A DNA stretch of 64,000 bases from an uncultured delta proteobacterium (GTDB lineage: Bacteria; Desulfobacterota; Binatia; UBA9968). A model generated the notes under the pieces. It searched no databases. It worked only from the letters and a program-made list of their open reading frames with translations, and was not told the DNA's origin. The position numbers and the translations under genes are program-made. The first letter of the stretch is position 1, and the number at the start of each line of letters is the position of its first letter. Positions 23,658 to 61,776 of the stretch are shown here, piece after piece. The stretch is from the NCBI GenBank assembly GCA_963804165.1, contig CAWDPO010000040.1, positions 128,001-192,000 on the forward strand. The letters are read 5' to 3'.

Positions 23658-23813
23658 GCCGCTGGGCCTGAGAGTCGATTGTTTTCCTGCTGCGAGTTTC
23701 ACAGCCTCAGCAGGAATCATGATTGGAATCTTCGAGGAAAAAACGATCGAAGAGATAGCTGTCATGCCAGGTAAAACTGTCGTTTTGGCATCAAACACAG
23801 AAAGGAGATAGAT

Positions 23814-24380: not shown

Positions 24381-24444
24381 ATGGATTCGCGGCCGGTGTT
24401 GGATGGTCAAGGAAAAGCTCACCGACGGAAGGAGGTGAACTCGA

Positions 24445-29476: not shown

Positions 29477-29763
29477 TGGATATTGGTTTTCATCTTATTA
29501 ATGCGCCAGCTGCCAACATAGCCGGGAGAAATGTTTTTAATGTCCCTTTCGGGGATGGTTGAAATTCAGGCCGGCGCAGGGCGGCCTCGACGTTCGATCT
29601 CGGTTCAAGTTCAAAAAACCGCCTGGATTCCGGCTTCCGCCGGACCGACGGAAACAAGAGTCGACTTCCAGTCGACAATTCTTTTAAAACCCTTCGGCTT
29701 GGAGTCACGGCTCGTTGAGTTTTTGATCGATGAACATCCCTTCCGATATTGAGACCAGGACTG

Positions 29764-29779
29764 AGCAATGGATATGCCA
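29764..29779 (-). promoter_or_regulatory. Putative sigma54 promoter
   Basis: Reverse strand TGGCAT-ATCCA-TTGCT, co-oriented with 29006..29476 and the DAGK gene. Confidence 0.6.
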
Positions 29780-29946
29780 GTGCAAACCCCTTAAAAGTAA
29801 AGGCGGTTGTAGGTGAGAGTATGCGGAAACCGGACAAGCTGAAGGAAATCAACTTATGCGGAGGAATTTATCGTTCAAGTGAGTTTGCAACGACCCAGGT
29901 ATGGCGGGAAGCCAGCGATGACTCTTGCCCGCGAGCTTTTTTGTTG

Positions 29947-32900
29947 TCACGCCGTCTCGGCAGCGAACTTGGTGGGGAGATAAATCGTAAACGTCGTGCC
30001 TTTTCCCGGCTGGCTTTTAACCTCGATGCGCCCGCCGTGGTTCTTGACGATACGCTCGCAGATCGGCAGTCCTAAGCCCAGACCGGTTACTTTCCTCGCT
30101 GTATAAAACGGCTGAAAAATTTTCGGCAGGTCTTTCTCATCGATGCCTAAACCCGTGTCAGCGACGGTGATCACGACATTCTGGTTCGCCTCGATATCTT
30201 GGAGCGTGGCGCCGATTGTGAGTGTGCCGCCGCCAGGCATGGCGTCCAGCGCATTCAGATATAGATTGATCAGCACCTGTTCGAGCTGCTGCGCATCGCC
30301 ATGAATGTTGGGCAGGTGGTCGGCTGGTATTTGCCGCACCGCTTCCACTTTTTGTCTATGCAGACGACTGTTGATCATCTGCAGGCTCGTCTCGATGAGC
30401 GATGCGACATTGACCGCCTGAGGATGGGTCTCGCCCGGTCGGCTGTATTGCATCAGGCTTTGAATTAGCTTTTGACAGCGCTTGGTTTCGTCATCGATGA
30501 TCGTCAATGCCTGATGGCGTGGGTCCGAGGGATCGGTCTCGCTCAATAGATCTTCGGCAAACCCCATAATGATGCCGAGGGGATTATTAAATTCATGCGC
30601 CATCGAAGCAGTGATCTCACCGAGCGCCACCAGCCGGCCGGAGGCGATCAGTTGCTGTTCCAGCGCGCGGTTGTGTTGCCGTAGCTGCTCTTCGCTGGCG
30701 ATCAGTTCCTGCATCCGCCTGCGTTCGGTGATGTCGTCGATGGCCAGCAAGATCAGTTGATTTTGGCCGCTTTCCCGCTCGATGCGTCTGGCGTTGAGCA
30801 GCATCCTGCGCTGGCCGATGGTGGGAAATTCGTGCTCGATTTCGAAATCACTGAACCCCAGGTTCTTGGCTATGATCTGCTCGAGCAATCCGCGCAGCTT
30901 CGGGATGTTCCATTGGCCGTTGCCGAGCTCGAAGATGGAGCGGTTTTGCGTATCCGCCGGATTTGCCTGAAACGCTTGGTAAAAAGTCCGATTGGCCGAG
31001 ACTACGCGCAGGTCCTTGTCGAGGACCAGGAGCGGTTCGCGCACGGTCTCGACGATCCCTTCGGCGAAATTGCGCGCTTCCCGCATGGCGATTTCCGATT
31101 GTTTCAGCGGGCTGACGTCGTTGAAGGTCAAAACCACGCCATCGATTTTGTTGTCCGTCGTGCGATACGGCAGGCAGGTCATGGTGAACCAGCGGCCGTC
31201 GGATGCGCGCACTTCCTTCCTTAATACGGCAAGACTCCGGAGCACGTGTTTGGCATCCGCGACGAGGTCTACTCCGGCAAAGTGATGGGTCATGTTGTCA
31301 ATCGGCCGGCCCACGTCCGAAGCGATCAGGCTCATGAGGCTCGTTGCCGATGGGGTGAAGCGCTTGATGCGAAACTCGCTGTCGAGAAATATCGTCGCCA
31401 CTTCCGAAGAATTCAAAAAATTCACCAGGTCGTTATTGACTGCGGTGAGCTCTTCGACCTTCAGATTGAGCTGGCTGTTGACGGTGTTCAGTTCCTCGTT
31501 GACCGCCTGGATCTCTTCCTTGGAGGTCTCCAACTCCTCGTTGGTCGACTGCAGCTCTTCGTTGATCGAGAGAATCTCTTCGTTGGCAGCCTTGAGCTCT
31601 TCGGCCGAGGTTTCGTATTCGTCGATGGTGATCTGAAATTCGCTCTTTAAGGACTTCAATTCGGCTTCGAGTTGAGCCACCAGGGACTCATCTTCGCCAT
31701 GCTGGGTAACGCTATCGCGGCTCGGCAGCGCGCGCGGCTCTTCGCGCACATCCTCGAAGATCACCGCGTAGATCCGGTCGCCCTGTAAACGGCCGATCAC
31801 CGGCCGGATCGTGATGTTGACGGACAAGGTCGAGGCGCCGCGCTTGAGCGGGATGCGCTCCAACGTGACCGGTTCGTTATCGCTGACGATCTTGCGCAGA
31901 GCGACACGGAACTTCGCCGAAAGCATGTTTTCGAACATGTCGAGCAGATTGAGATTGGCATCGCCCGTCGGATGTTCGAGATACTTGCCGGTGGAACCGA
32001 AGAAGTGCAGTATCGCGCCATGTTCGTCGATCAGAACCATGCTCGCGTCGAAATGCTTGAGCAGCGCCTGCTGGTTCAATTCTGATAGATTGGCGTACGC
32101 GGGGGTCTGCCGTTCGCGCAGCAGAGGGCGTCCCCAAATTCTGCCGCCGAATGAAAGGGAGAAATCCGGTATGCCGGAGGCGATGGCGTTGTTGCGCCGG
32201 TAGATGCGCCATTTGGCGGCGATCGGCAGGAAAAGCGAGTTCTGCGAGGCCGTTCCATCCGATTTGCCCAAAAATAAATATCCTCCCGGGCCGAGGGCAA
32301 AGGCGAACAAGGAAATCAGTCTCCTTTGCACGGTCGGCTCGATATAGATCAAAAGGTTGCGGCAACTAATCAAATCGAGCTTCGAGAACGGCGCTTCCGT
32401 GAGCAGATTTTGCATCGAGAAGATGACCGATTCGCGGAGCCGTTTACTGACCTGGTAAGTCGAGTCTTGCTTGGTGAAAAACCGATTCATGCGCGGCTCC
32501 GAGACGTCGGCCGCGATACTGTGCGGATAAGTTCCTTCCCGGGCGAACTTCAGTGCCTCGCCGTCGACATCCGAAGCGAAAATTTGCAGCGGGCAATTCT
32601 TGTTTGCCGCTTCGAGCTGTTCCAATAGCAAGATCGCGATCGAATACGCTTCCTCGCCGGTCGAGCAACCGGGAATCCAGGCGCGGATCGAGCTGCCGTC
32701 GGCTCGTTCCTGAACCAGCGGCGCAATGACGGCGCGCCGCAGCTCCTCGAAGGCCTCAGGGTCGCGGAAAAAACTGCTGACGCCGATCAGCATGTCCTTT
32801 GCCAGATCGTCGACTTCCGCCGGGTTGGCTTGCAGAAAGCGTAGATAGTCGGAGAGCGAAGTGAGATTATTGATGCCCATGCGCCGCTCAGCGCGGCGCA

Positions 32901-33591
32901 GCAGCGTGGTTTTCTTGTAGGCGCTTAAATCGTTGGCGCTTCGCATGGCCAACACATCAAGGATGGCATCGAGCAGCTCGAGCTTTTCGCGATCGTCGGA
33001 GGTGTCGATGGCGCGGCCTTGCGGCGTGTACCGTTGAATGGCCTCAGGAATCTCGCGCAATGGCAGGACGCAATCGACCATCCCGGTGGCGATGGCGCTC
33101 TTGACCATGGCATCAAATTGAGCCGTCTCGGGTTGTTGCACGATGGTCAGGCCGCCGGCGGCTCGGACCTCGCGCAGGCCCAACGTGCCGTCGGATCCAC
33201 TGCCGGAAAAAATCACGCAGACCGCTCTTTCGCGCTGATCCTCTGCCAAAGAGCGGAAAAAAAAGTCGATCGGCATGCGCATGCCGTCGCGCCGCTCCAA
33301 TTCGGTGAGATAGAGGCGGCCGTTGTGGATCTTGAGAAACTTATTCGGCGGGATCGTATAGACGCAATCGGCGGCGAGCGTCACGCCATCCTTGGCCTGG
33401 ATGACTTTCATCACGGTGTGCTTGGCCAGGATATCGGCCATGTAGCTTGCGTGATGCGGGTCCAGGTGTTGGATCACCACGAAAGCATGGCCGCCGTCTG
33501 CGGGCATGGTCGTGAAAAACTCTTTCAAGGCATCCAGACCACCCGCGGATGCGCCGATGCCGACGACGATCAAATTCGAATCACTCGCCAC
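29947..33591 (-). CDS. CheB-CheR-PAS-histidine kinase fusion
   Basis: CheB GASAGG/QHL/GSDG; CheR GCSTGEE and ISCRNLLIY; EELQSTNEEL coiled coil; PAS; AHEFNNPL and HATPase boxes. Confidence 0.93.
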   Translation of the reverse strand: MASDSNLIVVGIGASAGGLDALKEFFTTMPADGGHAFVVIQHLDPHHASYMADILAKHTVMKVIQAKDGVTLAADCVYTIPPNKFLKIHNGRLYLTELERRDGMRMPIDFFFRSLAEDQRERAVCVIFSGSGSDGTLGLREVRAAGGLTIVQQPETAQFDAMVKSAIATGMVDCVLPLREIPEAIQRYTPQGRAIDTSDDREKLELLDAILDVLAMRSANDLSAYKKTTLLRRAERRMGINNLTSLSDYLRFLQANPAEVDDLAKDMLIGVSSFFRDPEAFEELRRAVIAPLVQERADGSSIRAWIPGCSTGEEAYSIAILLLEQLEAANKNCPLQIFASDVDGEALKFAREGTYPHSIAADVSEPRMNRFFTKQDSTYQVSKRLRESVIFSMQNLLTEAPFSKLDLISCRNLLIYIEPTVQRRLISLFAFALGPGGYLFLGKSDGTASQNSLFLPIAAKWRIYRRNNAIASGIPDFSLSFGGRIWGRPLLRERQTPAYANLSELNQQALLKHFDASMVLIDEHGAILHFFGSTGKYLEHPTGDANLNLLDMFENMLSAKFRVALRKIVSDNEPVTLERIPLKRGASTLSVNITIRPVIGRLQGDRIYAVIFEDVREEPRALPSRDSVTQHGEDESLVAQLEAELKSLKSEFQITIDEYETSAEELKAANEEILSINEELQSTNEELETSKEEIQAVNEELNTVNSQLNLKVEELTAVNNDLVNFLNSSEVATIFLDSEFRIKRFTPSATSLMSLIASDVGRPIDNMTHHFAGVDLVADAKHVLRSLAVLRKEVRASDGRWFTMTCLPYRTTDNKIDGVVLTFNDVSPLKQSEIAMREARNFAEGIVETVREPLLVLDKDLRVVSANRTFYQAFQANPADTQNRSIFELGNGQWNIPKLRGLLEQIIAKNLGFSDFEIEHEFPTIGQRRMLLNARRIERESGQNQLILLAIDDITERRRMQELIASEEQLRQHNRALEQQLIASGRLVALGEITASMAHEFNNPLGIIMGFAEDLLSETDPSDPRHQALTIIDDETKRCQKLIQSLMQYSRPGETHPQAVNVASLIETSLQMINSRLHRQKVEAVRQIPADHLPNIHGDAQQLEQVLINLYLNALDAMPGGGTLTIGATLQDIEANQNVVITVADTGLGIDEKDLPKIFQPFYTARKVTGLGLGLPICERIVKNHGGRIEVKSQPGKGTTFTIYLPTKFAAETA

Positions 33592-33652
33592 GTCTCACTC
33601 CAAGCAAAGTGCCGCTAGAAGCTGTAGCCGAAGTCCCCGCCCTCCCAATTGC

Positions 33653-35491
33653 TCACTTTACTTGCGCACCGTCAATCACTCCTTCCCCCGGGTTAGGCGC
33701 CGCCGGGAGATGGATTTCAAAGGTCGTTCCCAGGCCCGGCCGGCTTTGGATTTTGATCTCGCCGCCGTGATTTTTGACGATGCGTTCGCAGATCGGTAGC
33801 CCCAAGCCCAAGCCGCGGCGTTTCTTGGCGGTATAGAACGGCTGAAAAATTTTGCCCATTGCGGATTTCTCGATGCCGACGCCGGTATCGCTCACCGAGA
33901 TGATCAGCGCTCGATCAGTGGTTTCGGCCGTCCGCGCCGAGACGCTGAGCTTGCCGCCGTCGGGCATGGCATCGATGGCGTTTAAGTAGAGATTCACCAT
34001 GACTTGCGTCAGCTGTTGGGAGTCGGCATGGATCGGCGGCAGGAGTGGATCGGCGTCCTTCACGACCTCCACCTTTTGCTTGTAACAGTGGGCCTCGACG
34101 AGCTCCAAAGTCTTTTCGATCATGCTCGGGACGTCGATCATGGACTTAGCCACGTTTCGCGGCCGGGAATATTCCAGCAGGTCTTCGACGATTTTTTTGC
34201 AGCGCTTGGACTCCTCATTGATGATCTGCAGCGAGCGGTATTCCGTATTGGCCGGGTTGGTGTTGGCGAGCATGTCCTCGACAAAACCGATGATGATGCC
34301 GATCGGATTGTTAAACTCGTGCGCCATCGACGCGGTCACTTCACCGAGTGAAACCAGCCGTCCTGAGGCGATCAGCTGTTGCTCCAGCTCGTTGGCCTGA
34401 TTGCGCAGCCTCTGCTCGCTCTCGCGCAAATCCTCCTGGATTCTTGCCGCCTCGATCGTTTCCGCGGCATAGCGGGCGCATAGATCAGCGACCTGCAACT
34501 CGCGCGGGCCCGGACGTCGCGGTCTCTTAAAATAAACCGAGATGACGCCGAGCGCATCGCCGCTCCGAGTGAGTATGGGTACGCTATGCACAGCGCGGAA
34601 ACCACTGGCTCGTCCGGTTTCGAGAAAGTCTTCAAAGCGCGGGTCCGACTCGAGATCCTCAACGACTGCGCGCGTGCGTGTTGCAAACGCGTAGCTCGAC
34701 ACACTGACGTTCGGCTGGGCTATCATCCGGCTGAGATTTGACTTTGCGTCTTTGTTGAAACTCACGCTGGCGATAATGCCAAGAGATCCGGAATTCCGGT
34801 CGTACAGCGAGATCAGCCCGTATTGAGCGTCGTGAATTTCTACCAATGCTTCGAGAATGGCCTGGAGCCCGGCGTTAAGCTCGAGCGGTCCGGCGAGCGA
34901 TAACGCCAGTTGGTGCAGGCGGGTCAGCGCTTCGACCTGCAGGGTCAAATCATTCTTGGTTTCGGCAAGCTCGCTCTCGGCCTGCTTACGGTCGGTGATG
35001 TCGACCAACATGTTGATCGCGCCGATGATGGCGCCGGAAGCGTCGCGCAACAGGCGCGGATGGGCGAGAATATTGCGCCGGGAGCCGTCCTCGCCCTCGA
35101 CCAGGATTTCTGCGCCGTTGATTACTCTGCCTTCTTTGAGCGCCAGCGCCATGGGACATTGGTCATGCGGCAGAAACGTGCCGTCGGGCCGATAGATGCG
35201 GTACGAGCCGCACCATTGGTCCTCGCCGATTTTCGGCGCGCGGCCCCATAAGTCGGCGGCCGCGGCGTTGAATAGCGTGATGCGTCCCTCAGCGTCGGTG
35301 GTGTAGATCGCCGCCGGCAGCTCGTGCACGAGTTGACGGTAACGCTTGGCGCTCTCGCTCATTTCCTGGTTGGCTTCGCTGGTGAGCCCGACGTTGTCGA
35401 TGGCGAGCGCCGCATCGCCGTCGAGTTCCCTCGGAAAAAAAGTTTCCTGGGGTGTCGCTATTTCGGGCCACTGGGCCTCTGGGTTCCTCAT
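33653..35491 (-). CDS. PAS-GAF histidine kinase
   Basis: PAS (YTTDAEGRI, DITDRK), GAF, AHEFNNPI, NAIDAM, GLGLGL; start at ATG 35491 after gaagga. Confidence 0.92.
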   Translation of the reverse strand: MRNPEAQWPEIATPQETFFPRELDGDAALAIDNVGLTSEANQEMSESAKRYRQLVHELPAAIYTTDAEGRITLFNAAAADLWGRAPKIGEDQWCGSYRIYRPDGTFLPHDQCPMALALKEGRVINGAEILVEGEDGSRRNILAHPRLLRDASGAIIGAINMLVDITDRKQAESELAETKNDLTLQVEALTRLHQLALSLAGPLELNAGLQAILEALVEIHDAQYGLISLYDRNSGSLGIIASVSFNKDAKSNLSRMIAQPNVSVSSYAFATRTRAVVEDLESDPRFEDFLETGRASGFRAVHSVPILTRSGDALGVISVYFKRPRRPGPRELQVADLCARYAAETIEAARIQEDLRESEQRLRNQANELEQQLIASGRLVSLGEVTASMAHEFNNPIGIIIGFVEDMLANTNPANTEYRSLQIINEESKRCKKIVEDLLEYSRPRNVAKSMIDVPSMIEKTLELVEAHCYKQKVEVVKDADPLLPPIHADSQQLTQVMVNLYLNAIDAMPDGGKLSVSARTAETTDRALIISVSDTGVGIEKSAMGKIFQPFYTAKKRRGLGLGLPICERIVKNHGGEIKIQSRPGLGTTFEIHLPAAPNPGEGVIDGAQVK

Positions 35492-35501
35492 GATGGTCCT
35501 T

Positions 35502-37970
35502 CTAACCTTTCGCCGTGTCGGACGCTCTCCGTTCATCACGCGAGCGACGATTTACAGGTAAGTGAATTTCGAAGGTGGTTCCTTGGCCCGGCCGGCTCGC
35601 CACTTTGATTTCGCCGCCGTGGTTCTTGACGATCCGTTCGCAAATGGGCAGTCCAAGGCCCAAACCGCGGCGTTTCTTGGCGGTGTAAAACGGCTGAAAA
35701 ATTTTATCTATTTCCACCTTGTCGATACCCACGCCGGTATCGGCGACAGCAATGATCACCGTCGATTTGTCCTGATCGGCGGCTCTCGCACCGACGCGCA
35801 GCGTGCCGCCGCTAGGCATGGCGTCGATGGCGTTTAAGTGCAGATTGACCAAAACTTGCGCCAACTGCTGGGAGTCGGCGTAAATCCTTGGCAGCGGAGC
35901 CGCCGTTTCGTTCACGGTTTCGATTTTTTGCTTATAGAGATGAGTCTCGACCAATTTTAGCGCCCTTTCAATAACACCCTGAACATCGATCATGGACATT
36001 TCCGCGCTTCGCGGCCGGGCGTATTCCATCAGATCCTCGACGATTTTTTTGCAACGCTGCGCTTCGTCGTTAATGATCTTCAAACCCCGATGCTCGGGAT
36101 CGGAAGGCTTGGCATTACCGAGCATATCCTCGACAAAGCCGATGATGATGCCCAGCGGATTGTTGAATTCGTGCGCCATCGACGCGGTCACCTGGCCGAG
36201 CGAAACCAACCGCCCCGACGCGATCAGCTGCTGCTCGAGTTCCATGGCTTGATCGCGCAGCTTCTGCTCGTTTTCGCGCAGCGCCATTTCCGCGCGCTTG
36301 CGGTCGGTGATGTCATGGTTGGTTTCAATGATGATCGGCGGCTTGTCTTGTGGGCGCCACAGCAACATGCGGCTCTCGACGAATATTTCCTTGCCATCCT
36401 TGGTGCGATGGCGCAGCTCGCCGTTCCAGACGGTGCCGTCTTGCAGAACACGTTTCACCGCCTCGATTCCGCCGGGACATTCGGTTTGCAATAAGATCGG
36501 CGGTACTTGACCCATGGCTTCCTCGCGGGTAAAGCCGTAGAGCCGTTCGGCGCCCCGGTTCCAATTCAGGATGCCGCCATCGAACTCCCATTGGATGATG
36601 GCATCATGGGTTTCTTCGAGCATCTGCGCCTGCTGGCGGGCGAGCTGGCGAATGCGCACGCGATTGCCGATGTCGAGATTGATGCCGACCCACGCGGTAA
36701 TTTTCCCGGCTTGGTCCTTGATCGGCACGCCGCGCACCAAGATCGGATGCCACTCGCCGTCGACCCCCTTGATCCGGTGCTCGCGCTCGAAAAAAGTGCC
36801 GGCGCGCAGGCATTCTTGCCATCGGGTCCTCGTCTCGGCGGCGTCATCCGGATGGAGCACATCGGTCCAACCGAGCTCGGAGTACTGCGCTAGAGTTAAA
36901 CCGGTCAGGGCCAGAAACGAGTCGCTGGCGTAAGTGTCGCGGCCCTCGGCGTCCGCGATCCAGATCCCATAGGGAATCGAATCGCCGATCGCGCGATAAA
37001 ACTCGCCGGTTTGACGCAAGGCTTCCTCGGCTGCTTTGCGATCGGTGATGTCGATGATCATGCCGGCGGTGTACTTAATCGCGCCCTGTTGATCGCGAAG
37101 GTGAGTACCGAGCAGTTTTGCCCACACCACCGAGCCGTCCTTGTGCTGGTAGCGCTTCTCCGACGCATAAAAAGGCGCGTTCTGATCGCGCGCGCCGCGT
37201 GCCAGGGCGAGTATCGCTTCGGTGTTTTCATCGGGAGGGGTAATGTCTTTCCAGGTTTTTTGCAGCAGTTCTTCGGCAGGGTAGCCGGTGATGTCGCAAT
37301 ACGCGCCGTTGACGCTCACGAAACGGCCGTCTTGCGGATCGCAGAGCGCGACCCCCACGGCCGCTTGCTCGAAAATCGCGCGAAAACGTTCTTCGCTCTC
37401 GCGCAGCTTTTCCTCGGCGCGGATCCGTTCAAGAGCGTCGTTAGCGTGGACAAGATAGAGATCGAGCGTGCTGAGCACGTGTCCGCTTGGCTGGTGCGGC
37501 TCGCGAAAGTACGTCGACACGACGCCCAACAGCCCGCCGCTGCGGCTCACCAGGGCAACTGATTGCATGGCGCGAAAGCCAACCGATTTCGCAAAGGCGC
37601 GATCGTACGCAAATTCTGGATCGAGATCCACGTCTTCGATGATGACTCTCCCGCCGGCCAAGGCGCGCGTGCAAGCCGAGCTGTCGTGCACCGACACGGC
37701 TTGGAAGTGATCGAGAGACGCTTGGTCAAAGCCGCGTTGGGAAGCGACCGCCAGCACTTTACGCGCGTCGTCATAGATTTGCACCATACCCATTGGCGCT
37801 CCGACGATCTCCATGCACCCGTCGAGAATCTGCTCGAATGCGGTGTGCAGATCGGTCAGCCGTAAAAGCTGCGTGCTGAGCCGATACAAGTTGTTGATCG
37901 CGCTCATCTCGGCAGCGAGATCTCCTTCTCGCTGGGCCATTCGCTCATGGTGTCGATTTCGGTCGTTCAC
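35502..37970 (-). CDS. GAF-PAS-PAS-PAS histidine kinase
   Basis: N-terminal GAF, three PAS/PAC units (DITDRK, HPDD), AHEFNNPL, HATPase. Confidence 0.93.
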   Translation of the reverse strand: MNDRNRHHERMAQREGDLAAEMSAINNLYRLSTQLLRLTDLHTAFEQILDGCMEIVGAPMGMVQIYDDARKVLAVASQRGFDQASLDHFQAVSVHDSSACTRALAGGRVIIEDVDLDPEFAYDRAFAKSVGFRAMQSVALVSRSGGLLGVVSTYFREPHQPSGHVLSTLDLYLVHANDALERIRAEEKLRESEERFRAIFEQAAVGVALCDPQDGRFVSVNGAYCDITGYPAEELLQKTWKDITPPDENTEAILALARGARDQNAPFYASEKRYQHKDGSVVWAKLLGTHLRDQQGAIKYTAGMIIDITDRKAAEEALRQTGEFYRAIGDSIPYGIWIADAEGRDTYASDSFLALTGLTLAQYSELGWTDVLHPDDAAETRTRWQECLRAGTFFEREHRIKGVDGEWHPILVRGVPIKDQAGKITAWVGINLDIGNRVRIRQLARQQAQMLEETHDAIIQWEFDGGILNWNRGAERLYGFTREEAMGQVPPILLQTECPGGIEAVKRVLQDGTVWNGELRHRTKDGKEIFVESRMLLWRPQDKPPIIIETNHDITDRKRAEMALRENEQKLRDQAMELEQQLIASGRLVSLGQVTASMAHEFNNPLGIIIGFVEDMLGNAKPSDPEHRGLKIINDEAQRCKKIVEDLMEYARPRSAEMSMIDVQGVIERALKLVETHLYKQKIETVNETAAPLPRIYADSQQLAQVLVNLHLNAIDAMPSGGTLRVGARAADQDKSTVIIAVADTGVGIDKVEIDKIFQPFYTAKKRRGLGLGLPICERIVKNHGGEIKVASRPGQGTTFEIHLPVNRRSRDERRASDTAKG

Positions 37971-38143
37971 GGCTTCAGCTCTCCCCGGCGCAACGGCGAT
38001 TCAGTTGGTCCAACAATAGGCGACAAATTGTTTGCACTCGGGTTTTCATCTTGCGGTCGGTGGTTAATCGCGTGATGAGTTGCGGCGCCGGATGCGGCAG
38101 GAGAGGATTCCCGGCATTCGGTGCCGTGAGAGCGCGGTAAGCT

Positions 38144-39802: not shown

Positions 39803-39812
39803 CGCGCGTTCT

Positions 39813-40163
39813 CTAGGCCGCCGGCTCGCTGGGAGCGATCTCCATGCCGACGATCACCCGCTCGGTGTCCGATAAATCGCCGATGAATCGGCGCAAAGGC
39901 AGCGGCAACTTTTTGACCAGCGTCGGCGCCGCGACAATCTGCTCGCCCTTGGCGAGCGCCGGGTTCTGGTAGATATCGATGACCTCCAGATCATAGCGGC
40001 CGTTCAAGTTATGCTCGCAAATCTGTTTGATATTGGCGACGGCGCGGCTCGAACGTGGCGTCATTCCGGCGATATACAAGCGCAGAACGAATTTTTCCTT
40101 CGACTGGTTTTCCAGACGCGACTCGAGTCTCACTACCGTCGAGCCTTTCATTTGTTTGGTCAT
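39813..40163 (-). CDS. kaiB: KaiB family protein
   Basis: LRLYIAGMTPRS, VIDI, IVAAPTLVKKLPLPLRRFIGDLS. Confidence 0.95.
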   Translation of the reverse strand: MTKQMKGSTVVRLESRLENQSKEKFVLRLYIAGMTPRSSRAVANIKQICEHNLNGRYDLEVIDIYQNPALAKGEQIVAAPTLVKKLPLPLRRFIGDLSDTERVIVGMEIAPSEPAA

Positions 40164-40184
40164 TGGCTTTCCTTGTGGTATTTC

Positions 40185-40502
40185 CTAGGTTCGGCCGCGT
40201 AAATCCAGGCCGACCAAAACTTTTTCGGTGTTGGACAGATCGCCGATAATCTTGCGCATGGGCGCGGGCAGATTTCTCACCAGCGTCGGCACCGCGAGAA
40301 TCTGGTCGCCGCGGGCGAGCTGGGGATTTTCCAGCAAATCAATGACGTCGATGCGATATTTATTGCGCAAATGTTCGGCACAGATCTTCTTGAGATTCGA
40401 GAATGCGGTGAGCGACTTGGGCGTCTGGCCGGCCACATACAAGCGCAATACCCATTGATCATCTTGAGCTTCGGAAGGCTTAACGGTCTTTGCCAGAACC
40501 AT
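40185..40502 (-). CDS. kaiB: KaiB family protein
   Basis: [35 protein letters not shown]. Confidence 0.95.
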
Positions 40503-42273
40503 GACTGCTTCCTTTCATGTCGCGGCTGCCTGCCCGTTGTGAGCTCGCGCCGTTGCTGCCGCGCAGCTTCGCCATTTGGGCACGATTGTTCTCTAGCAGC
40601 TGCTCACGTTGTTTCTGCCGGGTGATTTCTTTCTCGATTTCCCGGGTCTCGGAGTCAAATTGCGCCCGGAGCGCGGAGATTTGCGCTTCCAGCGCTTTGC
40701 GCTTGCGCTCGAGCTCACGCTGCGCCCGTTCGGTATCTTGTTGCCGGCTCCGAGCCTCAGCCTTTTCTTTCGCTTCCTGCGTCATCCGCGCGCTGCCCGT
40801 TACCACGCCTTCCGGTCCGAGGTAAACGTTCACTAGGTCGATGCCGTGGTCGGTCAGGACAAACTCGCGAACCTGATTGGAGTGCGCGATGCCGCGAGCC
40901 TTGAGCACGTACAGCACCCGGTTGCGCTCGCCGTTGGTTTCGATATTGCGCAGCAGGATCCAGGTGTCCATCAGAGAAGAGACGCCCATTTCAGTCTGTT
41001 CTTGATCGACTCCGGCTTCGGTCAGGCTGTTGAAGATCGCCGTGATGTGACGAGTTTTTAGAAAATCGATCAGACGGGTCAACATCGATCGGGTCTCCAA
41101 CTTGTCCCCGAGCGACAGAAACGTCGTCAGCGGGTCGAAGACCACCACTTTCGGTTTCAGCTCTTCAATCAGTTTATGGACTTTCACAAGATGCATTTCC
41201 AATCCATGCAACGAAGGGCGCGCCGCTTCGAAGTGCAGCAAACCGTTTTTGCTCCACGCGCCGAGGTCGAGGCCGACGGAGCGCATGTTGCGAACAATTT
41301 GCCCCGGACTTTCTTCGCTGGCAAAAAAGACGCAGCGCTCGCCGCGCCCGCAAGCGGCGTGGACAAAGTGCGCCGCCAGGCTGGTTTTGCCCGTGCCCGC
41401 GGTGCCGGACACCAGGATGCTCGAGCCGCGATAATAGCCCTTGCCGCCTAGCATCTGATCGAGGCTGGGGATACCGCTCGAAATCCGCTCCGCCGCGACC
41501 GTATGGTCGAGTCCGAGCGAAGTGATCGGCAGCACCGAGATCCCATTCTCATCGATCAAAAACGGATACTCGTTGGTGCCGTGAGTCGAGCCGCGATATT
41601 TGACGACGCGCAGGCGACGAGTGGAGGTTTGCTCTTTGACTCGATGGTCGAGCAGGATCACGCAATCGGAAACATATTCTTCGAGGCCGTGGCGGGTGAG
41701 GCTGCCGTCGCCGCGCTCAGCGGTAATGATCGCGGTTACGCCTTTGTCTTTCAGCCAGCGGAAGAGCCGGCGTAATTCGGCGCGCAAGATATTGCTGTCG
41801 GACAGACCCGCAAAAATCGCTTCAATGGTGTCGAGCACGACGCGCTTGGCGCCGATGGAGTCGATGGCGTGCGCCAGGCGAATGAACAGACCTTCGAGAT
41901 TGTACTCGCCGGTTTCCTCGATCTCGCTGCGTTCGATGCGCACGTAGTCGATGAACAGTTTCTTGCGCCGGATGAGATCTGTCAGGTCGTAGCCGAGGGA
42001 AGCGACGTTTTTGGTCAGATCCTCCTCGGTCTCTTCAAAGGCCATAAAGACTCCGGGCTCGTCATACTGCATCACGCCGCGAACCAAGAACTCTATGGCG
42101 AACAACGTTTTGCCGCAACCGGCCTGGCCGCAAACCAGCGTCGGGCGGCCGCGCGGCAACCCGCCGAGTGTGATCTCATCGAGTCCGCTTATACCGGTGG
42201 GCGCCTTGGCCAATGCTGGGCGCTCATGATTATTCAGTGCGCGATTCGTCGCGGCGGTTGTTTTTGGCTTCAT
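40480..42273 (-). CDS. kaiC: Double-domain KaiC (KaiC2-like) with C-terminal coiled coil
   Basis: Two Walker A motifs ([16 protein letters not shown]), FEE/SEE catalytic glutamates, VSSLMDTW phosphosite region. Confidence 0.96.
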
Positions 42274-42529
42274 AGGGTTTTCTTTGGCGACAAAAATTTA
42301 AGATCGGCGCTGATTGAACGCAAGCCCCCGTCTAAAATGTTTCTCGTGAACTGCCTGCCGGACACAAAGTTCGATGCTGTCTATGCGACACTCGGGTACG
42401 ACGGGCCGTCCTCGCGATATCACAAGCGCTCACTGATCACCCGCGCACCTCCTCCACGACTACCAACCTTCAACCGGAAAATTCTAAAATCTGATGGGAC
42501 TCAAGACGCAAAAGACGTCTGTCCCACTT

Positions 42530-42889
42530 TCAACTCGTCAGCTCGCGCACGATGCCCTTTAATTTTTGAATGTCCAGGGGTTTGGTCAGATACTCTTTCG
42601 CCCCTTTGCGAAAACACTCTTCGCGAGTGTCCGCCGTGGGGTAGGCGGTGATCATGACGACTTGCGTCGACGGCGCGCGCTGCTTGATTTCCGCGAGCAG
42701 CGCGACGCCGTCGACGGGAAACATTTTGATGTCGAGAATAGCGGCGCAATACTCGTTGTTTTGAATGAAATTCAGGGCTTGATGGCTGCCATGCGCGACG
42801 CTGACCGCGTAACCTTCCTTGCTGAAGATGCGCTCTAGAAGGATCAGCAGATTCTCTTCATCATCGACAATTAAAATAGAACTTGCCAT
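42530..42889 (-). CDS. Single-domain response regulator
   Basis: ILIVDDE, ILDIKM, ITAYP, YLTKP; upstream of kaiC. Confidence 0.9.
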   Translation of the reverse strand: MASSILIVDDEENLLILLERIFSKEGYAVSVAHGSHQALNFIQNNEYCAAILDIKMFPVDGVALLAEIKQRAPSTQVVMITAYPTADTREECFRKGAKEYLTKPLDIQKLKGIVRELTS

Positions 42890-43233
42890 CGTTGCTTCCA
42901 GCATACTCCCTGTCATGGACTGCATTCCCCATCCCCCGCTCTCGTCACATTGCCGCGCGCTAAGTTATACCCAGCCGCTTCAAATGAAGAGTCCTCACCG
43001 TTTTTGCCGCGATCCATCCGCAGAACAGCAAATGGCCGTGGTTTGATGAGACTCGGTCTACGACCTCAAAGCTTCTATCACTACTCGTTTTGGCACCGCA
43101 ACGGTTATGTCGTCGCGCTGATAACCGCCTGGAACCAAAAAACACTGCGGCGGCACTCGGGCAGAATGGCTTCCCGAGTGCCGCCCCGCTCGGGATCCTT
43201 GATCCCTGGTAGCCAACAACAACGAGCCGGGTG

Positions 43234-43569
43234 CTATTTTTTACTTTGCACCTGAAGATTGTTCTGCACGCGTTTGACGCCTTTGACTTGCATCGCCAAT
43301 TGCTCGGCGCGCTGCTTTTGATCGGGCGACTCGACGATGCCGGTGAGCGAAACCACTTGTTTGGCGGTGTCGACATCGACCCGGGTCAAATTCGAGGCCT
43401 TTTCAGCGACGAGCTTAGATTTTACGGTCGCCGTAATCGTCGAGTCATCGACGTATTCACCGGCGGTTTCGCCGGTCATCGATGTGCATCCGCTGGTCGA
43501 TAGAAAAATCGCCAGTAACCCGGACGCGACCGGCAGCCAAAAAGAAGAATAGGTTTTTCGTAACGACAT
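43234..43569 (-). CDS. BON domain lipoprotein
   Basis: Lipobox TSGC; DDSTITATVKSKL, VSLTG, VKGVKRVQNNL. Confidence 0.9.
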   Translation of the reverse strand: MSLRKTYSSFWLPVASGLLAIFLSTSGCTSMTGETAGEYVDDSTITATVKSKLVAEKASNLTRVDVDTAKQVVSLTGIVESPDQKQRAEQLAMQVKGVKRVQNNLQVQSKK

Positions 43570-43619
43570 GGAACCTCCAAAATTTTAAACTTCCGAAAAG
43601 TCAGTCCGCTCCTTGCTGC

Positions 43620-43772
43620 TTAGATCCCTCCCGTGAGCAATAGGATGATGATAATCAGCAGCACCAAACCCAGACCGCCGCTCGGGTAGTATCCCCAGCC
43701 GGAACTGTAAGGCCAGGTCGGCAGAGCGCCGATTAACAGCAGAATGAGGATAATCAGCAAAATGGTTCCCAT
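43620..43772 (-). CDS. DUF3309 family small membrane protein
   Basis: MGTILLIILILLLIGALPTWPYSSGWGYYPSGGLG signature; SD gaggggg. Confidence 0.88.
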   Translation of the reverse strand: MGTILLIILILLLIGALPTWPYSSGWGYYPSGGLGLVLLIIIILLLTGGI

Positions 43773-43838
43773 TTGGATTCCCCCTCTCAGTGTTAGATGC
43801 CTGATCCTGACTGCCAAAAAGAGCGCACGCTATTTTCG

Positions 43839-44993
43839 TCAAGTCGGCAGACGCGATTCATTGCAAGGGACACTCCGAAACGCCATTGTCTCTGCGTCTT
43901 GCTTCGCCGCCCGACCTTTTCGCGCTTGGGTGAGCACGGGTCGGGACTCGAACGCAGCGAGCTCGAGGCCGACTACGCGCGGCCGCTTCGGCGCCTTGGT
44001 CAGACCATTGAGGCGCGACTCATAACCGGTCTTTCTTAAAACCTCCATGACCCGACTCTCCGAGCCCCAGTCGCTCCAGAAAACATTGCGGACGGGCAGC
44101 GTGACGAGCCTCGACGCGTGATCGCGCGCCAGTCGCTCCAAAATTTCTTTGGAAAAATTGATCGGCGACAAATCCTGATAGATTTCCTCCACCACGCCCT
44201 CCTCATCGGCCGTGCCGATGGCGTCATAAACGGCCCGATACATGCAGGACAATGCCGGGGAGAGATCGATCATCAGCTCCATCAGCGTGCTGGTTTTGAA
44301 GACCATCATCATGGTGTTCCACAACGCGCCGTCGCGTGTCAGCTTTTGCGCGCTTTCGTAGTCTGGTTTCTCGACAAACGACGAGATCCGGAATAGCGGG
44401 TTAGGGCCTCGTTTGAGTCTGCAGCCAGGCAGGATATAGCCGTACTCGGACTCTTCCCGGTCGGGCTCGATGCCCATCAGGACGACGCGCGATGGATCGC
44501 GCTTGACCAAAAGTTGAGCGAATTTCAGGTGGCGCGCCAGCTCGTCTGCTTCAAGGATGAAATGGTCCGACGGCATGACGGTGACAACGGAGTTCGGATA
44601 ACGCTTGGCGATGTGGAGAAGGGAAAGAAAGATCCCCGGCGCCGTCTCCTTGTTTTCGGGCTGCACGATCACCGTATTGGGGCTTCGATTCACCAGCTGG
44701 CACCGCACGTCCGGAAAGGCAAGGTGGCTCTTGTTGATGACCGTAAACACGCGGTTTGCCGCAGCTAACTTACCCGCCCGCTCGAAGGTGTGTTCGAGCA
44801 TGGAGCGGCGACCGATAAAACTAACGTACTGCTTGGGCAGCAAGTCGCCGCGTAAAAGGTGGACGAACGGGCGCAGCCGTTTCCCTTCCCCGCCGGCGAG
44901 TACGAGCGCGCAGGGCAGCGAATCTTTCTGAGCGAGCTCGATTGGATTCTCTATACGAGCTTGGTGATTACTGCTGGCGTGAGATTGTCCCAT
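43839..44993 (-). CDS. Sugar-phosphate nucleotidyltransferase (mannose-1-P guanylyltransferase-like)
   Basis: LAGGEGKRL, PKQY, NKETAP, PSDH, YGYI, FVEKP, WSDWG. Confidence 0.88.
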   Translation of the reverse strand: MGQSHASSNHQARIENPIELAQKDSLPCALVLAGGEGKRLRPFVHLLRGDLLPKQYVSFIGRRSMLEHTFERAGKLAAANRVFTVINKSHLAFPDVRCQLVNRSPNTVIVQPENKETAPGIFLSLLHIAKRYPNSVVTVMPSDHFILEADELARHLKFAQLLVKRDPSRVVLMGIEPDREESEYGYILPGCRLKRGPNPLFRISSFVEKPDYESAQKLTRDGALWNTMMMVFKTSTLMELMIDLSPALSCMYRAVYDAIGTADEEGVVEEIYQDLSPINFSKEILERLARDHASRLVTLPVRNVFWSDWGSESRVMEVLRKTGYESRLNGLTKAPKRPRVVGLELAAFESRPVLTQARKGRAAKQDAETMAFRSVPCNESRLPT

Positions 44994-45040
44994 TGGTTCT
45001 CCTTGTCTATCGGTGAATATCTCCCTACAAATCCGCCAAT

Positions 45041-45374
45041 CTATCCGGCCGGTCTAAGCGCGATCCGATTATTAATAACCAGCGCCGAGTGCACGGACTT
45101 TGGCAAGCTCGACTGCCTTGTCGCGGAAAGCTTTTGAAGCGACTGCGCCGGACAAAGTGACTTCGTTTTTAGCCGCTTCGGCGGTCACGTCGATGACAGC
45201 CTTTAGTTGCTCGTCGGTTTCCAGTTTCGCGCGGATGAGTCTTTCCAGTTCCAAGTCGTACATCATGAATGCCCGGGAGTCCCACGCGGTCCACCGTTCA
45301 TCGGGGCTCTCACCGGGCATAAAAAGTAGCGCGCAAATCAAAATGACAGGGATGATCCAACCTAGTTGCGTCAT
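45041..45374 (-). pseudogene. BON domain protein with a 1-nt frameshift near 45100 (or sequencing error)
   Basis: Removing one A from gccaaagtcc restores AKSVHSALVINNRIALRPAG*, a normal BON C-terminus. Confidence 0.7.
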
Positions 45375-45414
45375 GCGAACACTCGCCTACGATTCCGACT
45401 CGTTGGGGCATCGA

Positions 45415-45430
45415 CACAAAGAATGTGCCA
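45415..45430 (-). promoter_or_regulatory. Imperfect sigma54 promoter
   Basis: Reverse strand TGGCAC-ATTCT-TTGTG (-12 GT instead of GC); TGTA-N10-GACA at 45490-45507. Confidence 0.4.
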
Positions 45431-46349
45431 AACAGTTAGATCACTTATTGTGTGATAATTAACCGAATTTTCTCACATGGTCCGCCGTCTGTAAGTTTTT
45501 AAAGACAAGTTGAGCTGAAATTGCTTACAGCAAATTATTTGACTATTGGGCTGTGCGAGTTGATCGGCCAGTGGCGCGCCGCTGAAAAATACGCTCCGTG
45601 AGAGCCATAGCAACTGCGCAGGCCGCGGGAACTGCAAGGCTCTAAAGGTCAAATCTTTAACCGCAGGACGAATTGAACTTGCAAGTCCGAGCTAGCGATG
45701 AGAATTGACTTTCGAGGACGGCACCTTTGAATGTCTGGATCAGAGGATCACTCCAGACTCGCTCAGATTTACACCATCTGGGCCGCCGATCGTCTCGTCA
45801 TGTCGTGGAAGATCGACATGGAAGCCATGACATCCAGGGGACGTGCCGAGGAAACTGATCCGGCGGCTAGTGGATTGGCGCGACAGCATCGCGCGGTGGA
45901 ACAAGGAAAAGTGCAACTGGGCTGAGAGACAGTAAGACCGCCTAGGTAGATTTAACACGCCATTTTATTTTATTCTTCTAGCTTCAATGACTTTCATGTA
46001 GATTGCGCTCATCGTGTGGCATCGCTCGGACCAAATAATTTCAAAGATTTGCGCTGCGGCGCCATAAAATTCTCTCAAGTACGGGCCAATCCGACAATCT
46101 TGGTGAGGATATTGCAGTTGATGCAATAAAAGCTTACTAAGGCGGTAAAAGAGCCTCAACTGTGTGGATCTTTTCCGACAAATAGTAGGAAATAACGTAC
46201 GCGCAACTGCTGACAATCAACACGCTGCACATCAATAAGACTTTTGGCGCGACGCGAAATGAGTAAATCTTACCGCCGAATAAAGTGCACATAAGAAAAT
46301 GCACATAAGTTCGGCGAGCTTTAAAGTTAAGTTACTGGGGTGACAGAAC

Positions 46350-47774
46350 ATGTCCGCGGGCAATCTCTTGATCGTCGACGACGATCAAAACCTAATGGAG
46401 CTGGTCCAATCGAAATTGCGGGCCGCCGGTTATGAAGCCACGTCGGCACCAACCGGACGGGACGCCTTGCAATTGGTCAAAGAGGGGATTTTCGATCTGT
46501 GCATCGTTGATCTGAGACTCGCCGATCTGGACGGCATATCGCTGATGCGTGAGTTGCACCAGGTCAACCCGGGCATGCGCGTGATCATTCTCACCGGCTA
46601 CGGTAGCGTTGAGAGCGCCGTGGCGGCAATGCAAGAAGGCGCTTATAGCTACCTGACTAAACCGTTCAACACCCAGGAACTGCTGCTGCAAATCTCCAGG
46701 GCGTTGGAGAATCGCAGGCTTAATTCCGAGATCGAGCGGTTGAGGGGCCTTCTGGAAGAAACCTACGACTTTCCCAACATCGTCGCCAAGAGCGCGAAGA
46801 TGCGCAGCGTGCTGGATTTCGTTTCGCGGATTGCCGGCACCGAGTCGACCGTTTATCTGCACGGCGAGAGCGGCACCGGAAAGGAAATCATCGCCAAGGC
46901 GATTTATTTAGCCAGCGGCCGAAAAGATAAGCCGTTTGTCGCCATCAACTGCGCAGCTTTGCCCGAGCCCTTGCTCGAGAGCGAGCTGTTCGGTCATGAG
47001 AGGGGATCGTTTACCGGTGCGGAAAAAACCACCCGAGGCTTGCTGAGCCAAGCCCACACCGGCACTTTCTTCCTGGACGAAATCGGCGACATGCCGTTGT
47101 CGATTCAAGCTAAATTGCTGCGCGCCCTGCAGGACCGCCAGTTTTATCCGGTTGGCAGCGAAAAGCCGGTGCAGGTGAACGTCAGAATCATCGTCGCGAC
47201 CAATAAGAACTTAGAAGAGGAAGTGGCAAAGGGAAATTTCCGCATGGATCTTTTCTATCGGTTGCATGTGATTCCGATTCATTTGCCAACGCTGAGAGAG
47301 AGGAAAGAAGATATACCGCTGCTGGCCGACCGGTTCCTGAAGCAGATTTCCCAGCAGATGAAGAAAAAAATTAAGGGCATCACGCCGGAAGCCATGCGTA
47401 AGCTAATGCTCTACGACTGGCCAGGCAACGTCCGCGAACTGGAAAACACGCTGGAATACGCCGTGGCGATGACCCGCCATGACATGATCACCGAGGACGC
47501 CATTCTGCACACGAAAAACATCGCCATGAGGGGGGCGCGCTCTGACGATATAGGTCAATTCGTGAACGGCGGGACTTCGCCGATCAAGTCCTACAAAAAT
47601 GCCAAGTATGAATTTGAAAAAAGCTATCTGACTTACTTGCTCAAGCTTTGCGGCGGCAGAGCCAGCGAGGCGGCGAAACTGGCGGCAAAATCCCGCACCG
47701 ATTTTTATGAATTGCTGAGAAAACACGAAATCAGGATAGACGACTTCAAGCGCCCCGAAATGAGCCAAAGCTAG
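46350..47774 (+). CDS. Sigma54-dependent response regulator/enhancer-binding protein (NtrC family, GlrR-like)
   Basis: Receiver domain; GESGTGKE, ESELFGHERGSFTGA, FLDEIG, WPGNVRELEN; HTH AAKLAAKSRTDFYELL resembles the GlrR tail. Confidence 0.94.
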   Translation: MSAGNLLIVDDDQNLMELVQSKLRAAGYEATSAPTGRDALQLVKEGIFDLCIVDLRLADLDGISLMRELHQVNPGMRVIILTGYGSVESAVAAMQEGAYSYLTKPFNTQELLLQISRALENRRLNSEIERLRGLLEETYDFPNIVAKSAKMRSVLDFVSRIAGTESTVYLHGESGTGKEIIAKAIYLASGRKDKPFVAINCAALPEPLLESELFGHERGSFTGAEKTTRGLLSQAHTGTFFLDEIGDMPLSIQAKLLRALQDRQFYPVGSEKPVQVNVRIIVATNKNLEEEVAKGNFRMDLFYRLHVIPIHLPTLRERKEDIPLLADRFLKQISQQMKKKIKGITPEAMRKLMLYDWPGNVRELENTLEYAVAMTRHDMITEDAILHTKNIAMRGARSDDIGQFVNGGTSPIKSYKNAKYEFEKSYLTYLLKLCGGRASEAAKLAAKSRTDFYELLRKHEIRIDDFKRPEMSQS

Positions 47775-48011: not shown

Positions 48012-48161
48012 ATGGAGAAAGATGGGTCAGATATCAAAAGCCTCGTGAAGCCGTCCTCGGCGTTCGAATGCGACGGGTGCGGCGAGTGTTTCGGGTCCTG
48101 GGAGCGTCTCCGGCAGCATCAGGTCGATTGCAAAAGCGATGAATCAGAGGAGTGGTTGTAA
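48012..48161 (+). CDS. Small C2HC zinc-finger protein (49 aa)
   Basis: SD gaggg; MEKDGSDIKSLVKPSSAFECDGCGECFGSWERLRQHQVDCKSDESEEWL. Confidence 0.7.
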   Translation: MEKDGSDIKSLVKPSSAFECDGCGECFGSWERLRQHQVDCKSDESEEWL

Positions 48162-48463
48162 CGGGATACCGCTTCGCTCTCCGATTATGAACTCGCTCAG
48201 TCGCGCCAATCTGGAAAGCGCGGATTTCGCCTGCTAAGTACGGCGGAGCTTTTTATCTGGCGCGGGCTGTCTGAGCCTTCCAGCTGATCACAAGCGGGCA
48301 ATTCGACAGTTTCGGGTCACGCGGATTTCGCTCGGCGCCTCAGAACCGCCGATCGAGCGGTATCTCTGTAGCCGTTCGCTCGTGATGGCAACCCGTCACG
48401 CCGATGTGTGGTCGGTAGACAGCCGCAATCAGCAACAAAGCCGTGAAACGGAATAATATCAAT

Positions 48464-57318: not shown

Positions 57319-57350
57319 ATTCACGAACAAAAATGCAAGAAATTTTACGT

Positions 57351-61761: not shown

Positions 61762-61776
61762 AGCGGAGGATCTTCG

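Follow-up and report, generated by a model that had tools for sequence, protein, structure and literature searches.

A KaiC-KaiB-KaiB cassette and a chimeric histidine kinase in a sigma-54 activator module of an uncultured Binatia bacterium

We have analysed a stretch of DNA of 64,000 nucleotides, hereafter called the window, from an uncultured soil bacterium of the class Binatia (positions 128001-192000 of contig CAWDPO010000040.1, or G000:C40:128001-192000, where G000 is an assembly of 7.5 Mb in 46 contigs that is 81% complete). The window encodes a KaiC, two KaiB proteins (KaiB1 and KaiB2), a single-domain response regulator (RR1), four histidine kinases (HK1-HK4) and a sigma-54 activator, together with an island of stress genes behind sigma-54 promoters. 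The main new result is that HK1, the kinase following the KaiB genes, is at the sequence level a chimera, in which a Kai-associated N-terminus stands on a local-type kinase core. We read the locus as a local module of response regulator, kinases and activator, into which a mobile Kai cassette appears to have been spliced.

The chimeric kinase and its neighbours

All four kinases lie on the minus strand. HK1 (38144-39802) has the architecture PAS-PAS-HisKA-HATPase, while HK2 (35502-37970) is a GAF-3xPAS kinase, HK3 (33653-35539) a PAS-GAF kinase and HK4 (29947-33591) a CheB-CheR-PAS_10-PAS kinase; the initial annotation called them NtrB-type, which is a tentative label. The initial annotation described a response regulator, kaiC and two kaiB genes followed by four co-oriented kinases, with no kaiA. 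Every gene that it named was confirmed by Pfam, on which the gene and domain calls are based here, and a search for the KaiA family found none in the genome, at the completeness given above.

The same annotation called the dimerization and histidine phosphotransfer (DHp) helices of the four kinases near-identical. This is correct for helix 1 around the histidine, which reads ASGRLVSLGEVTASMAHEFNNPLGII.GF (consensus of the region in all four kinases, ASGRLV.LGE.TASMAHEFNNP.GII.GF), while the pairwise identity over the whole DHp (68 residues) is 60-78%. The ATPase domains share 50-67%, and the last sensor domain does not exceed 32%. The local DHp type was found in only six kinases of the genome, namely HK1-HK4 and one each on contigs C46 and C24; in Kai-less relatives it recurs in the kinases neighbouring the orthologous activators. 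That the four kinases have one DHp type in common, and one that is rare in the genome, argues for common receivers, and we consider it rather likely that they do share them.

The first 170 residues of HK1 comprise a coiled coil and, after it, a PAS domain, with the consensus AIR.GEVDALVV..G..VYTL.GAD.PYR. In a cross-phylum comparison of 80 KaiC loci with their flanks, this N-terminus (ca 170 residues) was found to recur directly after kaiB in 67, at 27-65% identity. The loci that carry it belong to Acidobacteriota, Bacteroidota, Planctomycetota, Verrucomicrobiota, Proteobacteria, an archaeon and others. The kinase core of HK1 is only 23-34% identical to these post-kaiB proteins. It shares 57-58% identity with the kinases located after RR1 in G160 and G165, two relatives that have no Kai genes at this locus and whose kinases lack the HK1 N-terminus.

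Among 63 proteins with the Kai-associated N-domain, the outputs include HATPase_c (46), HisKA (31), HisKA_3 (15) and REC (20). Rarer ones are GGDEF/EAL (2), HD (1) and Sigma54_activat (1), and ca 16 of the proteins are short and contain PAS only. Since the domain is constant beside kaiB and its outputs vary, it behaves as a reader of Kai proteins. The co-inheritance of its N-terminal domain with the Kai genes makes it probable that HK1 reads the Kai state. A complex prediction with residues 1-510 of KaiC, KaiB1, KaiB2 and residues 1-175 of HK1, each with its own alignment, gave scores of 0.01 and 0.00, which is no evidence either way.

One further arrangement was seen in a metagenome-assembled genome (MAG) labelled delta proteobacterium, where a sigma-54 activator of the form PAS-PAS-AAA+-HTH_8 (L054:12446-14611) follows directly after KaiC-KaiB-KaiB. 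The flanks of that locus showed no clear sigma-54 promoters before stress genes with the pattern used here. It represents a direct fusion of a Kai sensor to a sigma-54 activator, whereas in the present locus the connection would take two steps, with the sensor on the kinase and the receiver on the activator.

The Kai cassette and the module in relatives

KaiC (40480-42273, minus strand) has two KaiC/RecA domains (384 bits), and a P-loop is visible in both halves (GCGKT and GTGKT). Among solved structures it matches R. sphaeroides KaiC (8DBA) best, with 692 bits over residues 21-572 of 597, and the alignment extends into the C-terminal coiled coil, an extension that is kept in an alignment of 38 sequences. 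The protein also has a Ser-Ser pair (GVSSLMD, compared to GLSSLMD in 8DBA), of which S432 is invariant and S433 nearly so in the same alignment. By its coiled-coil extension and Ser-Ser site, the protein is assigned to the KaiC2, or Rhodobacter 'hourglass', type. KaiC2 proteins are described as showing KaiA-free phosphorylation that tracks the ATP/ADP ratio (bioRxiv 10.1101/2022.11.28.518275; PMC11372060).

KaiB1 (40185-40502) and KaiB2 (39813-40163), both on the minus strand, match the Pfam family KaiB with 92 and 90 bits, respectively, and have R. sphaeroides KaiB 8FWJ as their best solved match. The order KaiC, first-type KaiB, second-type KaiB was found in all 43 loci with two KaiB genes, and the first type is the more conserved one, with a mean column identity of 59% compared to 44% for the second. 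The available portions of the literature on these Kai systems make no mention of the two-KaiB cassette. KaiC of this type is patchy across the class, being present in 8 of 151 genomes.

RR1 (42530-42925, minus strand; Response_reg) lies upstream of KaiC. The sigma-54 activator, a bacterial enhancer-binding protein, is encoded on the plus strand at 46350-47774, which agrees with the initial annotation, where such an activator had been placed near the regulator; the distance to RR1 is 3.4 kb. Its domains are REC (98 bits), Sigma54_activat (231 bits, 1-168 of 168) and AAA_lid. In the receiver, the acidic pocket (VDDD), the phospho-Asp (VDLRL), the Thr (LTGY) and the Lys (TKPF) are visible, and the AAA+ loop reads GSFTGA, a loop of the GAFTGA type. 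The C-terminus has a tail that by eye resembles a helix-turn-helix, with no HTH_8 match at E <= 0.001. Orthologs of the activator are 84% identical in G159 and G164, 81% in G176 and 69% in G165 and G160. For RR1 the identities are 76% in L010 and G159, 67% in G176 and 56-57% in G160 and G165.

Divergent from the activator is an operon on the minus strand (43234-45374), behind a sigma-54-type promoter with GT at -12 (TGGCACATTCTTTGTG, 45415-45430; here called the 45430 promoter). It consists of a BON-like gene (45072-45374), a nucleotidyl transferase (43839-44993), a small membrane protein (about 43620-43771) and, as the last gene, a BON lipoprotein (43234-43569). These genes were assigned by Pfam and from the sequence itself, and the transferase and the small membrane protein are syntenic in L010, G159 and G176. 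In L010 and G159 the operon continues into RR1 and the kai genes, with short gaps between.

Six contigs of the genus are long enough for the module to be judged: those of G000, G159, L010 (a 'Candidatus Binatia' MAG and the nearest named relative of the locus), G176, G160 and G165. The activator, RR1 and a kinase were found together in all six, with Kai in three of them and without it in the other three. In G159 and L010 the activator is divergent from the nucleotidyl transferase, the small protein, RR1, KaiC, KaiB, KaiB, HK1, HK2 and HK4, that is, these close relatives have three kinases and only G000 has four. In G176 it is divergent from the transferase, RR1 and two kinases, both with the same DHp, and in G160 and G165 from BON, YtxH, RR1 and a PAS kinase. 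A search for KaiC in G176 (93% complete) found none, G160 has only a 31% relative elsewhere, and in G165 a KaiC of 63% identity is located on another contig. Wherever the Kai cassette is present in the module (3 contigs), it is located exactly between RR1 and the kinases.

Because the module is kept with Kai in three contigs and without it in three, Kai is to be seen as an added input and not as the core. This changes one point of the initial annotation. RR1, which was counted as part of the Kai block, belongs to the local module, since it is kept in the Kai-less G176, G160 and G165. The coupling of Kai to a kinase stands, by way of the HK1 N-terminus. An alternative to the insertion would be that Kai was lost in the three Kai-less contigs.

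A related arrangement was found in G156 and G163, where an RR1-like gene and a kinase of the same DHp type precede a paralogous activator (63-65% identity), all on one strand. In L097, a paralogous activator lies beside homologs of the superoxide dismutase (SOD) and nucleotidyl transferase genes, and no sigma-54 motif precedes that SOD. In another locus of the same class (L115, G103:C1:755000-774999), homologs of hemerythrin, BON and YflT (44-73%) lie ca 5 kb upstream of KaiC-KaiB-KaiB-PAS kinase. Kai cassettes may repeatedly occur near stress genes.

RR1-like regulators are present in 4-5 copies, and two paralogs stand behind sigma-54 motifs. One is RR2 (17382-17813, minus strand; 57% identical to RR1), behind the motif CGGCATCTGAATTGCT at 17813. 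No ATG, GTG or TTG start covers the acidic pocket of RR2; ILVVDDEEN can be read in frame upstream, where the sole candidate start is ATT. RR2 may thus have a rare start codon or a shortened N-terminus. Another RR1 paralog (53%), at C40:83094-84300, adjoins a sigma-54 motif and a BON gene that is 69% identical to the one in the window.

Sigma-54 promoters of the stress island

The genome contains rpoN (Sigma54_DBD, 210 bits) and encodes ca 30 sigma-54 activators, of which the one described above is the only one inside the window. For RpoS, the best sigma factor reaches 294 bits, compared to the model cut-off of 378.7; SigB and EcfG were not searched. A search of sequencing runs found no RNA run with this genome, and shares of at most 0.11 in three DNA runs, from soil or other sources.

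The pattern TGGYRYN5TTGCW matches the window 9 times, compared to 0.51 expected, and none of 100 shuffles reaches this number. Genome-wide there are 117 matches, or 1.0 per 64 kb, with the window as the top bin and 4 matches in the next one. In addition, 20 looser matches were judged in context, with the GT variant at -12 added, and 15 were accepted as intergenic and aimed at a gene. The accepted motifs lie 30-90 nt before start codons that have ribosome-binding sites. The 12 motifs of the initial annotation were accordingly a fair count. Two motifs were rejected, one at 26593, which overlaps the start codon of CHAD, and one at 43771, considered as a promoter for RR1-kaiC, which lies inside the ORF of the small membrane protein.

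The sigma-54 promoters in front of stress genes are real, and their conservation supports a function. The motif before the peroxiredoxin recurs at an unchanged distance in G176 and G159, and not in a partial match in G154 (2 of 3). The divergent promoter pair of PsiE and SOD is kept in both G176 and G160 (2/2), and TTTGGCA(C/T)AT(T/A)CTTTGTG before the operon divergent from the activator is kept in all four orthologous intergenic regions. Around each of these conserved cores the flanks are unalignable. As the SOD/PsiE or peroxiredoxin promoters are kept in the Kai-less G176 and G160, the promoters are independent of the presence of Kai.

Besides the motif of RR2 and the 45430 promoter, the accepted ones on the plus strand stand at 549 (before BON/YflT), 16428 (an ORF within the 16359-16787 frame, of no family), 18306 (CBS-YflT, then the KatE catalase), 22972 (a 197-aa ORF, 23064-23657), 47931 (TGGCACAGCCGTTGCT, a perfect consensus), 52325 (DUF883), 54250 (Fe/Mn SOD), 57351 (1-Cys peroxiredoxin) and 59865 (no clear target gene). 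Those on the minus strand stand at 16256 (a 2950-aa GT/GH94 gene resembling cyclic-glucan synthase), 29779 (small ORFs after HK4), 54134 (PsiE) and 59456 (PCC/DUF296). The 47931 promoter precedes a 49-aa Cys/His-rich ORF and then MdoG-like and GT2 genes (OPG-type), which extend to 51520.

Some of the target genes deserve a comment. The 2950-aa protein (7199-16051, minus strand) combines GT, glucoamylase and GH94 parts and is similar to cyclic beta-1,2-glucan synthase, and the MdoG-like and GT2 genes (48443-51520, plus strand) are likewise behind a sigma-54 motif, so that the synthesis of periplasmic glucans seems to fall under this class of promoter. The 49-aa ORF (48012-48161, plus strand), 65 nt after the 47931 promoter, has a C-x2-C ... 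H-x4-C pattern and no family. A 396-aa ORF of no family (23232-24422, minus strand) overlaps the 197-aa ORF on the plus strand; as the latter has a ribosome-binding site 76 nt after the sigma-54 motif, the 396-aa ORF is probably spurious. A YqjE/holin-X-like membrane protein and a LigD gene (ligase plus primase-polymerase), at 61396-63892, close the island; both are typical stationary-phase functions. Outside the window, a motif identical to that at 16428 is found at C40:120396, 8 kb before the window, and a second small cluster, with three sigma-54 motifs and paralogs of PaaA-like and CBS genes, is located at C43:37409-40390.

We have also searched for sites through which an activator could act on these promoters. 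At the divergent operon there is an inverted repeat, TGTAAG-N28-CTTACA (45490-45529), at -99/-65 of the 45430 promoter, which is a candidate enhancer site. Its half-sites are recognisable and partly conserved in all four orthologous regions. The pair occurs once in the window and 3 times in the genome, and only one occurrence is beside a sigma-54 motif. Since this conserved repeat is unique to the divergent promoter, the divergent operon is the best-supported direct target of the activator.

For the other promoters the searches gave less. A palindromic Gibbs sampler on 12 regions reached an information content of 7.85-8.35, compared to 6.5-7.7 for shuffles that were given fewer restarts, a difference in procedure that favours the real set. 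Footprinting upstream of the peroxiredoxin and SOD genes found nothing alignable past the -24/-12 core and the ribosome-binding site, and no orthologs of CBS-YflT were found in five relatives. The top motif of the Gibbs sampler, TTGTCG-N2-CGACAA, was rejected as evidence of a shared enhancer: with up to 2 mismatches it occurs 7 times in the window compared to 4.3 per 64 kb genome-wide, and with up to 3 mismatches the numbers are 37 and 39.

Proposed mechanism, alternatives and significance

We now consider how the locus could work. The core would be a module of the divergent sigma-54 activator, RR1 and one to four kinases with a common phospho-acceptor helix. A KaiC2-KaiB-KaiB 'hourglass' cassette would have been acquired between RR1 and the kinases, bringing along its own reader, the coiled-coil/PAS domain that now heads HK1 on a core of the local type. 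The phosphorylation state of KaiC, which in the Rhodobacter homologue depends on ATP/ADP (bioRxiv 10.1101/2022.11.28.518275), would be read via the KaiBs and the N-terminal domain of HK1 and would set the activity of this kinase. HK2-HK4 would add PAS, GAF and CheB/CheR inputs. All four kinases would then phosphorylate the same receivers, namely RR1/RR2, in the role of sink or shuttle, and the receiver domain of the activator. Two further paralogs of RR1 would likewise serve as sinks or shuttles. Once phosphorylated, the activator would open the divergent sigma-54 promoter of the BON, nucleotidyl transferase, small membrane protein and BON genes. Transcription may read through into RR1, kai and the kinases, and it is plausible that the activator raises in this way the expression of its own signalling genes, in a loop. 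It may also act on further sigma-54 promoters of the stress island.

The contact between Kai and HK1, the phosphotransfer to the activator and the set of promoters served by it are the steps that we infer. They are not equally probable. That the activator is one of the receivers of HK1-HK4 is suggested by the synteny in two types of module, and here the balance tips slightly in favour. That it drives most of the island is a tentative proposal. For the scheme as a whole, that is, a lineage-specific two-component module with an acquired Kai cassette working as proposed, we consider the arguments for and against to be evenly balanced.

Several observations weigh against the scheme. Kai is missing from three of the six module-bearing contigs and is thus dispensable for the module. 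No sigma-54 motif stands directly before RR1 or kaiC, and in the present genome RR1 is parted from the operon upstream by a hairpin and T-run near 43150-43210, after the BON lipoprotein. This hairpin was recognised by eye, and the terminator scan did not pick it up; a consensus scan of 29400-46400 for sigma-70 promoters and terminators did no better than shuffles. A comparison of receiver helix 1 in 12 activator paralogs gave differences too small for specificity to be read from them. At the class level, the cassette with a PAS kinase was found in five of six Kai loci and the activator in none, and within the fetched flanks of the 80 cross-phylum loci an activator was found near KaiC in only three. 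In addition, the island contains a fifth kinase, HK5 (55479-57119), which could be the kinase of the activator instead. It is a PAS-PAS kinase with a classical HEIRNPL H-box and a DHp of another type than that of HK1-HK4. HK5 adjoins the sigma-54-driven peroxiredoxin in G000 (55479-58008), G159:C509 and G176:C30.

One alternative that fits these observations is that there are two separate systems next to each other. The Kai-HK1 pair and the other kinases would signal via RR1 and RR2 alone, which would act on another target through contacts between proteins or by serving as phosphate sinks, and the activator would have another kinase, either HK5 or an orphan. A precedent is the KaiC of Pseudomonas, which acts together with a kinase and a regulator of a single domain and, in the available portion of the source, with no known DNA-binding partner (bioRxiv 10.1101/2022.01.26.477890). 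The multiple copies of RR1-like regulators, some of them behind sigma-54 motifs, the nearby HK5 with its conserved link to the peroxiredoxin, and the 77 cross-phylum and six class-level Kai loci with no activator point in the same direction. However, the activator adjoins RR1 and a kinase in all six genus contigs, over a range of 69-84% activator identity, and the same DHp type is found beside the paralogous activator in G156 and G163. Furthermore, no orthologs of HK5 were found in G160 and G165, which retain the activator. We consider this alternative unlikely.

The other question is the extent of the regulon. The promoters could be split among several of the ca 30 activators, each serving different stresses, with the 46350 activator controlling only the divergent operon, in the manner of a classical NtrC-type pair with local action, a view that we consider somewhat less probable than not. 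The conserved inverted repeat is found at the divergent promoter and is absent from the other 14 promoters of the window, the presence of k-mers across 14 upstream regions stays at shuffle level with no shared site, many activators are encoded, and the regions upstream of the peroxiredoxin and SOD genes are unconserved past the core. On the other hand, no bin of the genome is as dense in sigma-54 motifs as the window, in which a single activator gene is located, and enhancer sites are often degenerate, so that they could be missed with 12-15 sequences. That the motifs themselves are chance matches in AT-richer intergenic DNA is highly improbable. Two of the matches, strict or loose, are indeed located in coding sequence (26593 and 43771), and about half of the 117 genome-wide matches would be expected by chance if the shuffle rate of the window applies genome-wide, but the excess in the window, the position of the motifs before starts with ribosome-binding sites and the cores kept amid diverged flanks all speak against it. 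The initial annotation had the activator switch on the island through sigma-54. Its promoters have turned out to be real and conserved, but nothing ties the ca 14 others to the activator. With no shared enhancer, a repeat only at the activator's own promoter and ca 30 activators in the genome, one master regulon is unproven, the claim being based on proximity.

The proposed scheme can be compared to a number of known systems. Operons of kaiC, kaiB and a PAS/histidine kinase have been published (PMC4794148). The KaiBC systems of Rhodopseudomonas palustris and R. sphaeroides are alike in having a KaiA-less KaiC of the KaiC2 type, with coiled coil and Ser-Ser site, a KaiB and a PAS kinase directly downstream. 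In the present locus, by comparison, there are two KaiB paralogs, the upstream response regulator comes from the local module, the kinase core is of the local type common to three more kinases, and a conserved sigma-54 activator accompanies them. The available portions of those studies name no transcription factor as output (PMC4794148; bioRxiv 10.1101/2022.11.28.518275). In Pseudomonas, KaiC also adjoins a kinase, together with a response regulator of the single-domain type. There it binds the kinase via an N-terminal PAS domain, a stress phenotype is described, a sink or shuttle role is proposed for the single-domain regulator, and a DNA-binding regulator is postulated (bioRxiv 10.1101/2022.01.26.477890). 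KaiB takes no part in the P. putida system described, whereas the present locus offers, in the activator, a syntenic candidate for the DNA-binding output.

As regards the activator, PexR of Myxococcus xanthus is a sigma-54 activator of ahpC and katB that senses H2O2 via a GAF domain (PMC12754779). The likeness lies in peroxiredoxin and catalase genes under sigma-54 promoters with an enhancer-binding protein. The present activator has a receiver in place of the GAF domain and is thus not of the PexR type; with this N-terminus it needs a kinase, unlike PexR. The island is also much broader, including SOD, BON, YflT, DUF883, PsiE and glucan genes. Receiver-AAA+ activators switched by phosphorylation at sigma-54 promoters are known from NtrB-NtrC with glnAp2 and from Borrelia Rrp2-RpoN-RpoS (PMC1976401; PMC4014564), and, as there, the activator may autoregulate an operon holding its own signalling genes. 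The differences are the several kinases, the Kai input and the stress effectors as direct targets, with neither nitrogen control nor a cascade through a second sigma factor.

The general stress response of alphaproteobacteria, PhyR-NepR-EcfG, connects several kinases with similar phospho-acceptor domains, and single-domain regulators, to one receiver-containing master of genes of the KatE/BON/DUF883 type. Its output is a partner switch of an ECF (extracytoplasmic function) sigma factor, whereas here an AAA+ activator of sigma-54 would take that place. Since its effectors carry sigma-54 motifs, the present system is not a member of the general stress responses under RpoS, SigB or EcfG, although it may work alike. 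A bolder reading for this lineage is that a sigma-54 activator with its bundle of kinases replaces RpoS, SigB or EcfG as the general-stress master switch, and that some strains have grafted a KaiC2-KaiB-KaiB hourglass of energy or time onto it via a chimeric kinase. The regulon would then comprise catalase, SOD, peroxiredoxin, BON, YflT, DUF883, PsiE and periplasmic glucans. We regard this reading as doubtful; if it is true, the activator would be the first transcription factor to be named downstream of a Kai system outside the cyanobacteria. By title and start of abstract, no paper was found that links KaiC with sigma-54, nor Binatia with sigma-54.

KaiBC systems without KaiA are widespread, and little is known of their outputs. 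The present locus provides a testable chain, from a Kai cassette to a chimeric kinase, a receiver-type sigma-54 activator and a conserved promoter, and a single genus holds natural versions of the module with and without Kai, such that a comparison is possible. Genes that textbooks assign to RpoS, SigB or EcfG stand in this window behind a dense set of sigma-54 promoters. The locus suggests a new means by which a general stress response could be turned on, but is no proof of it. Together with PexR of Myxococcus, it suggests that, in lineages rich in enhancer-binding proteins, regulons for stress protection can be under sigma-54.

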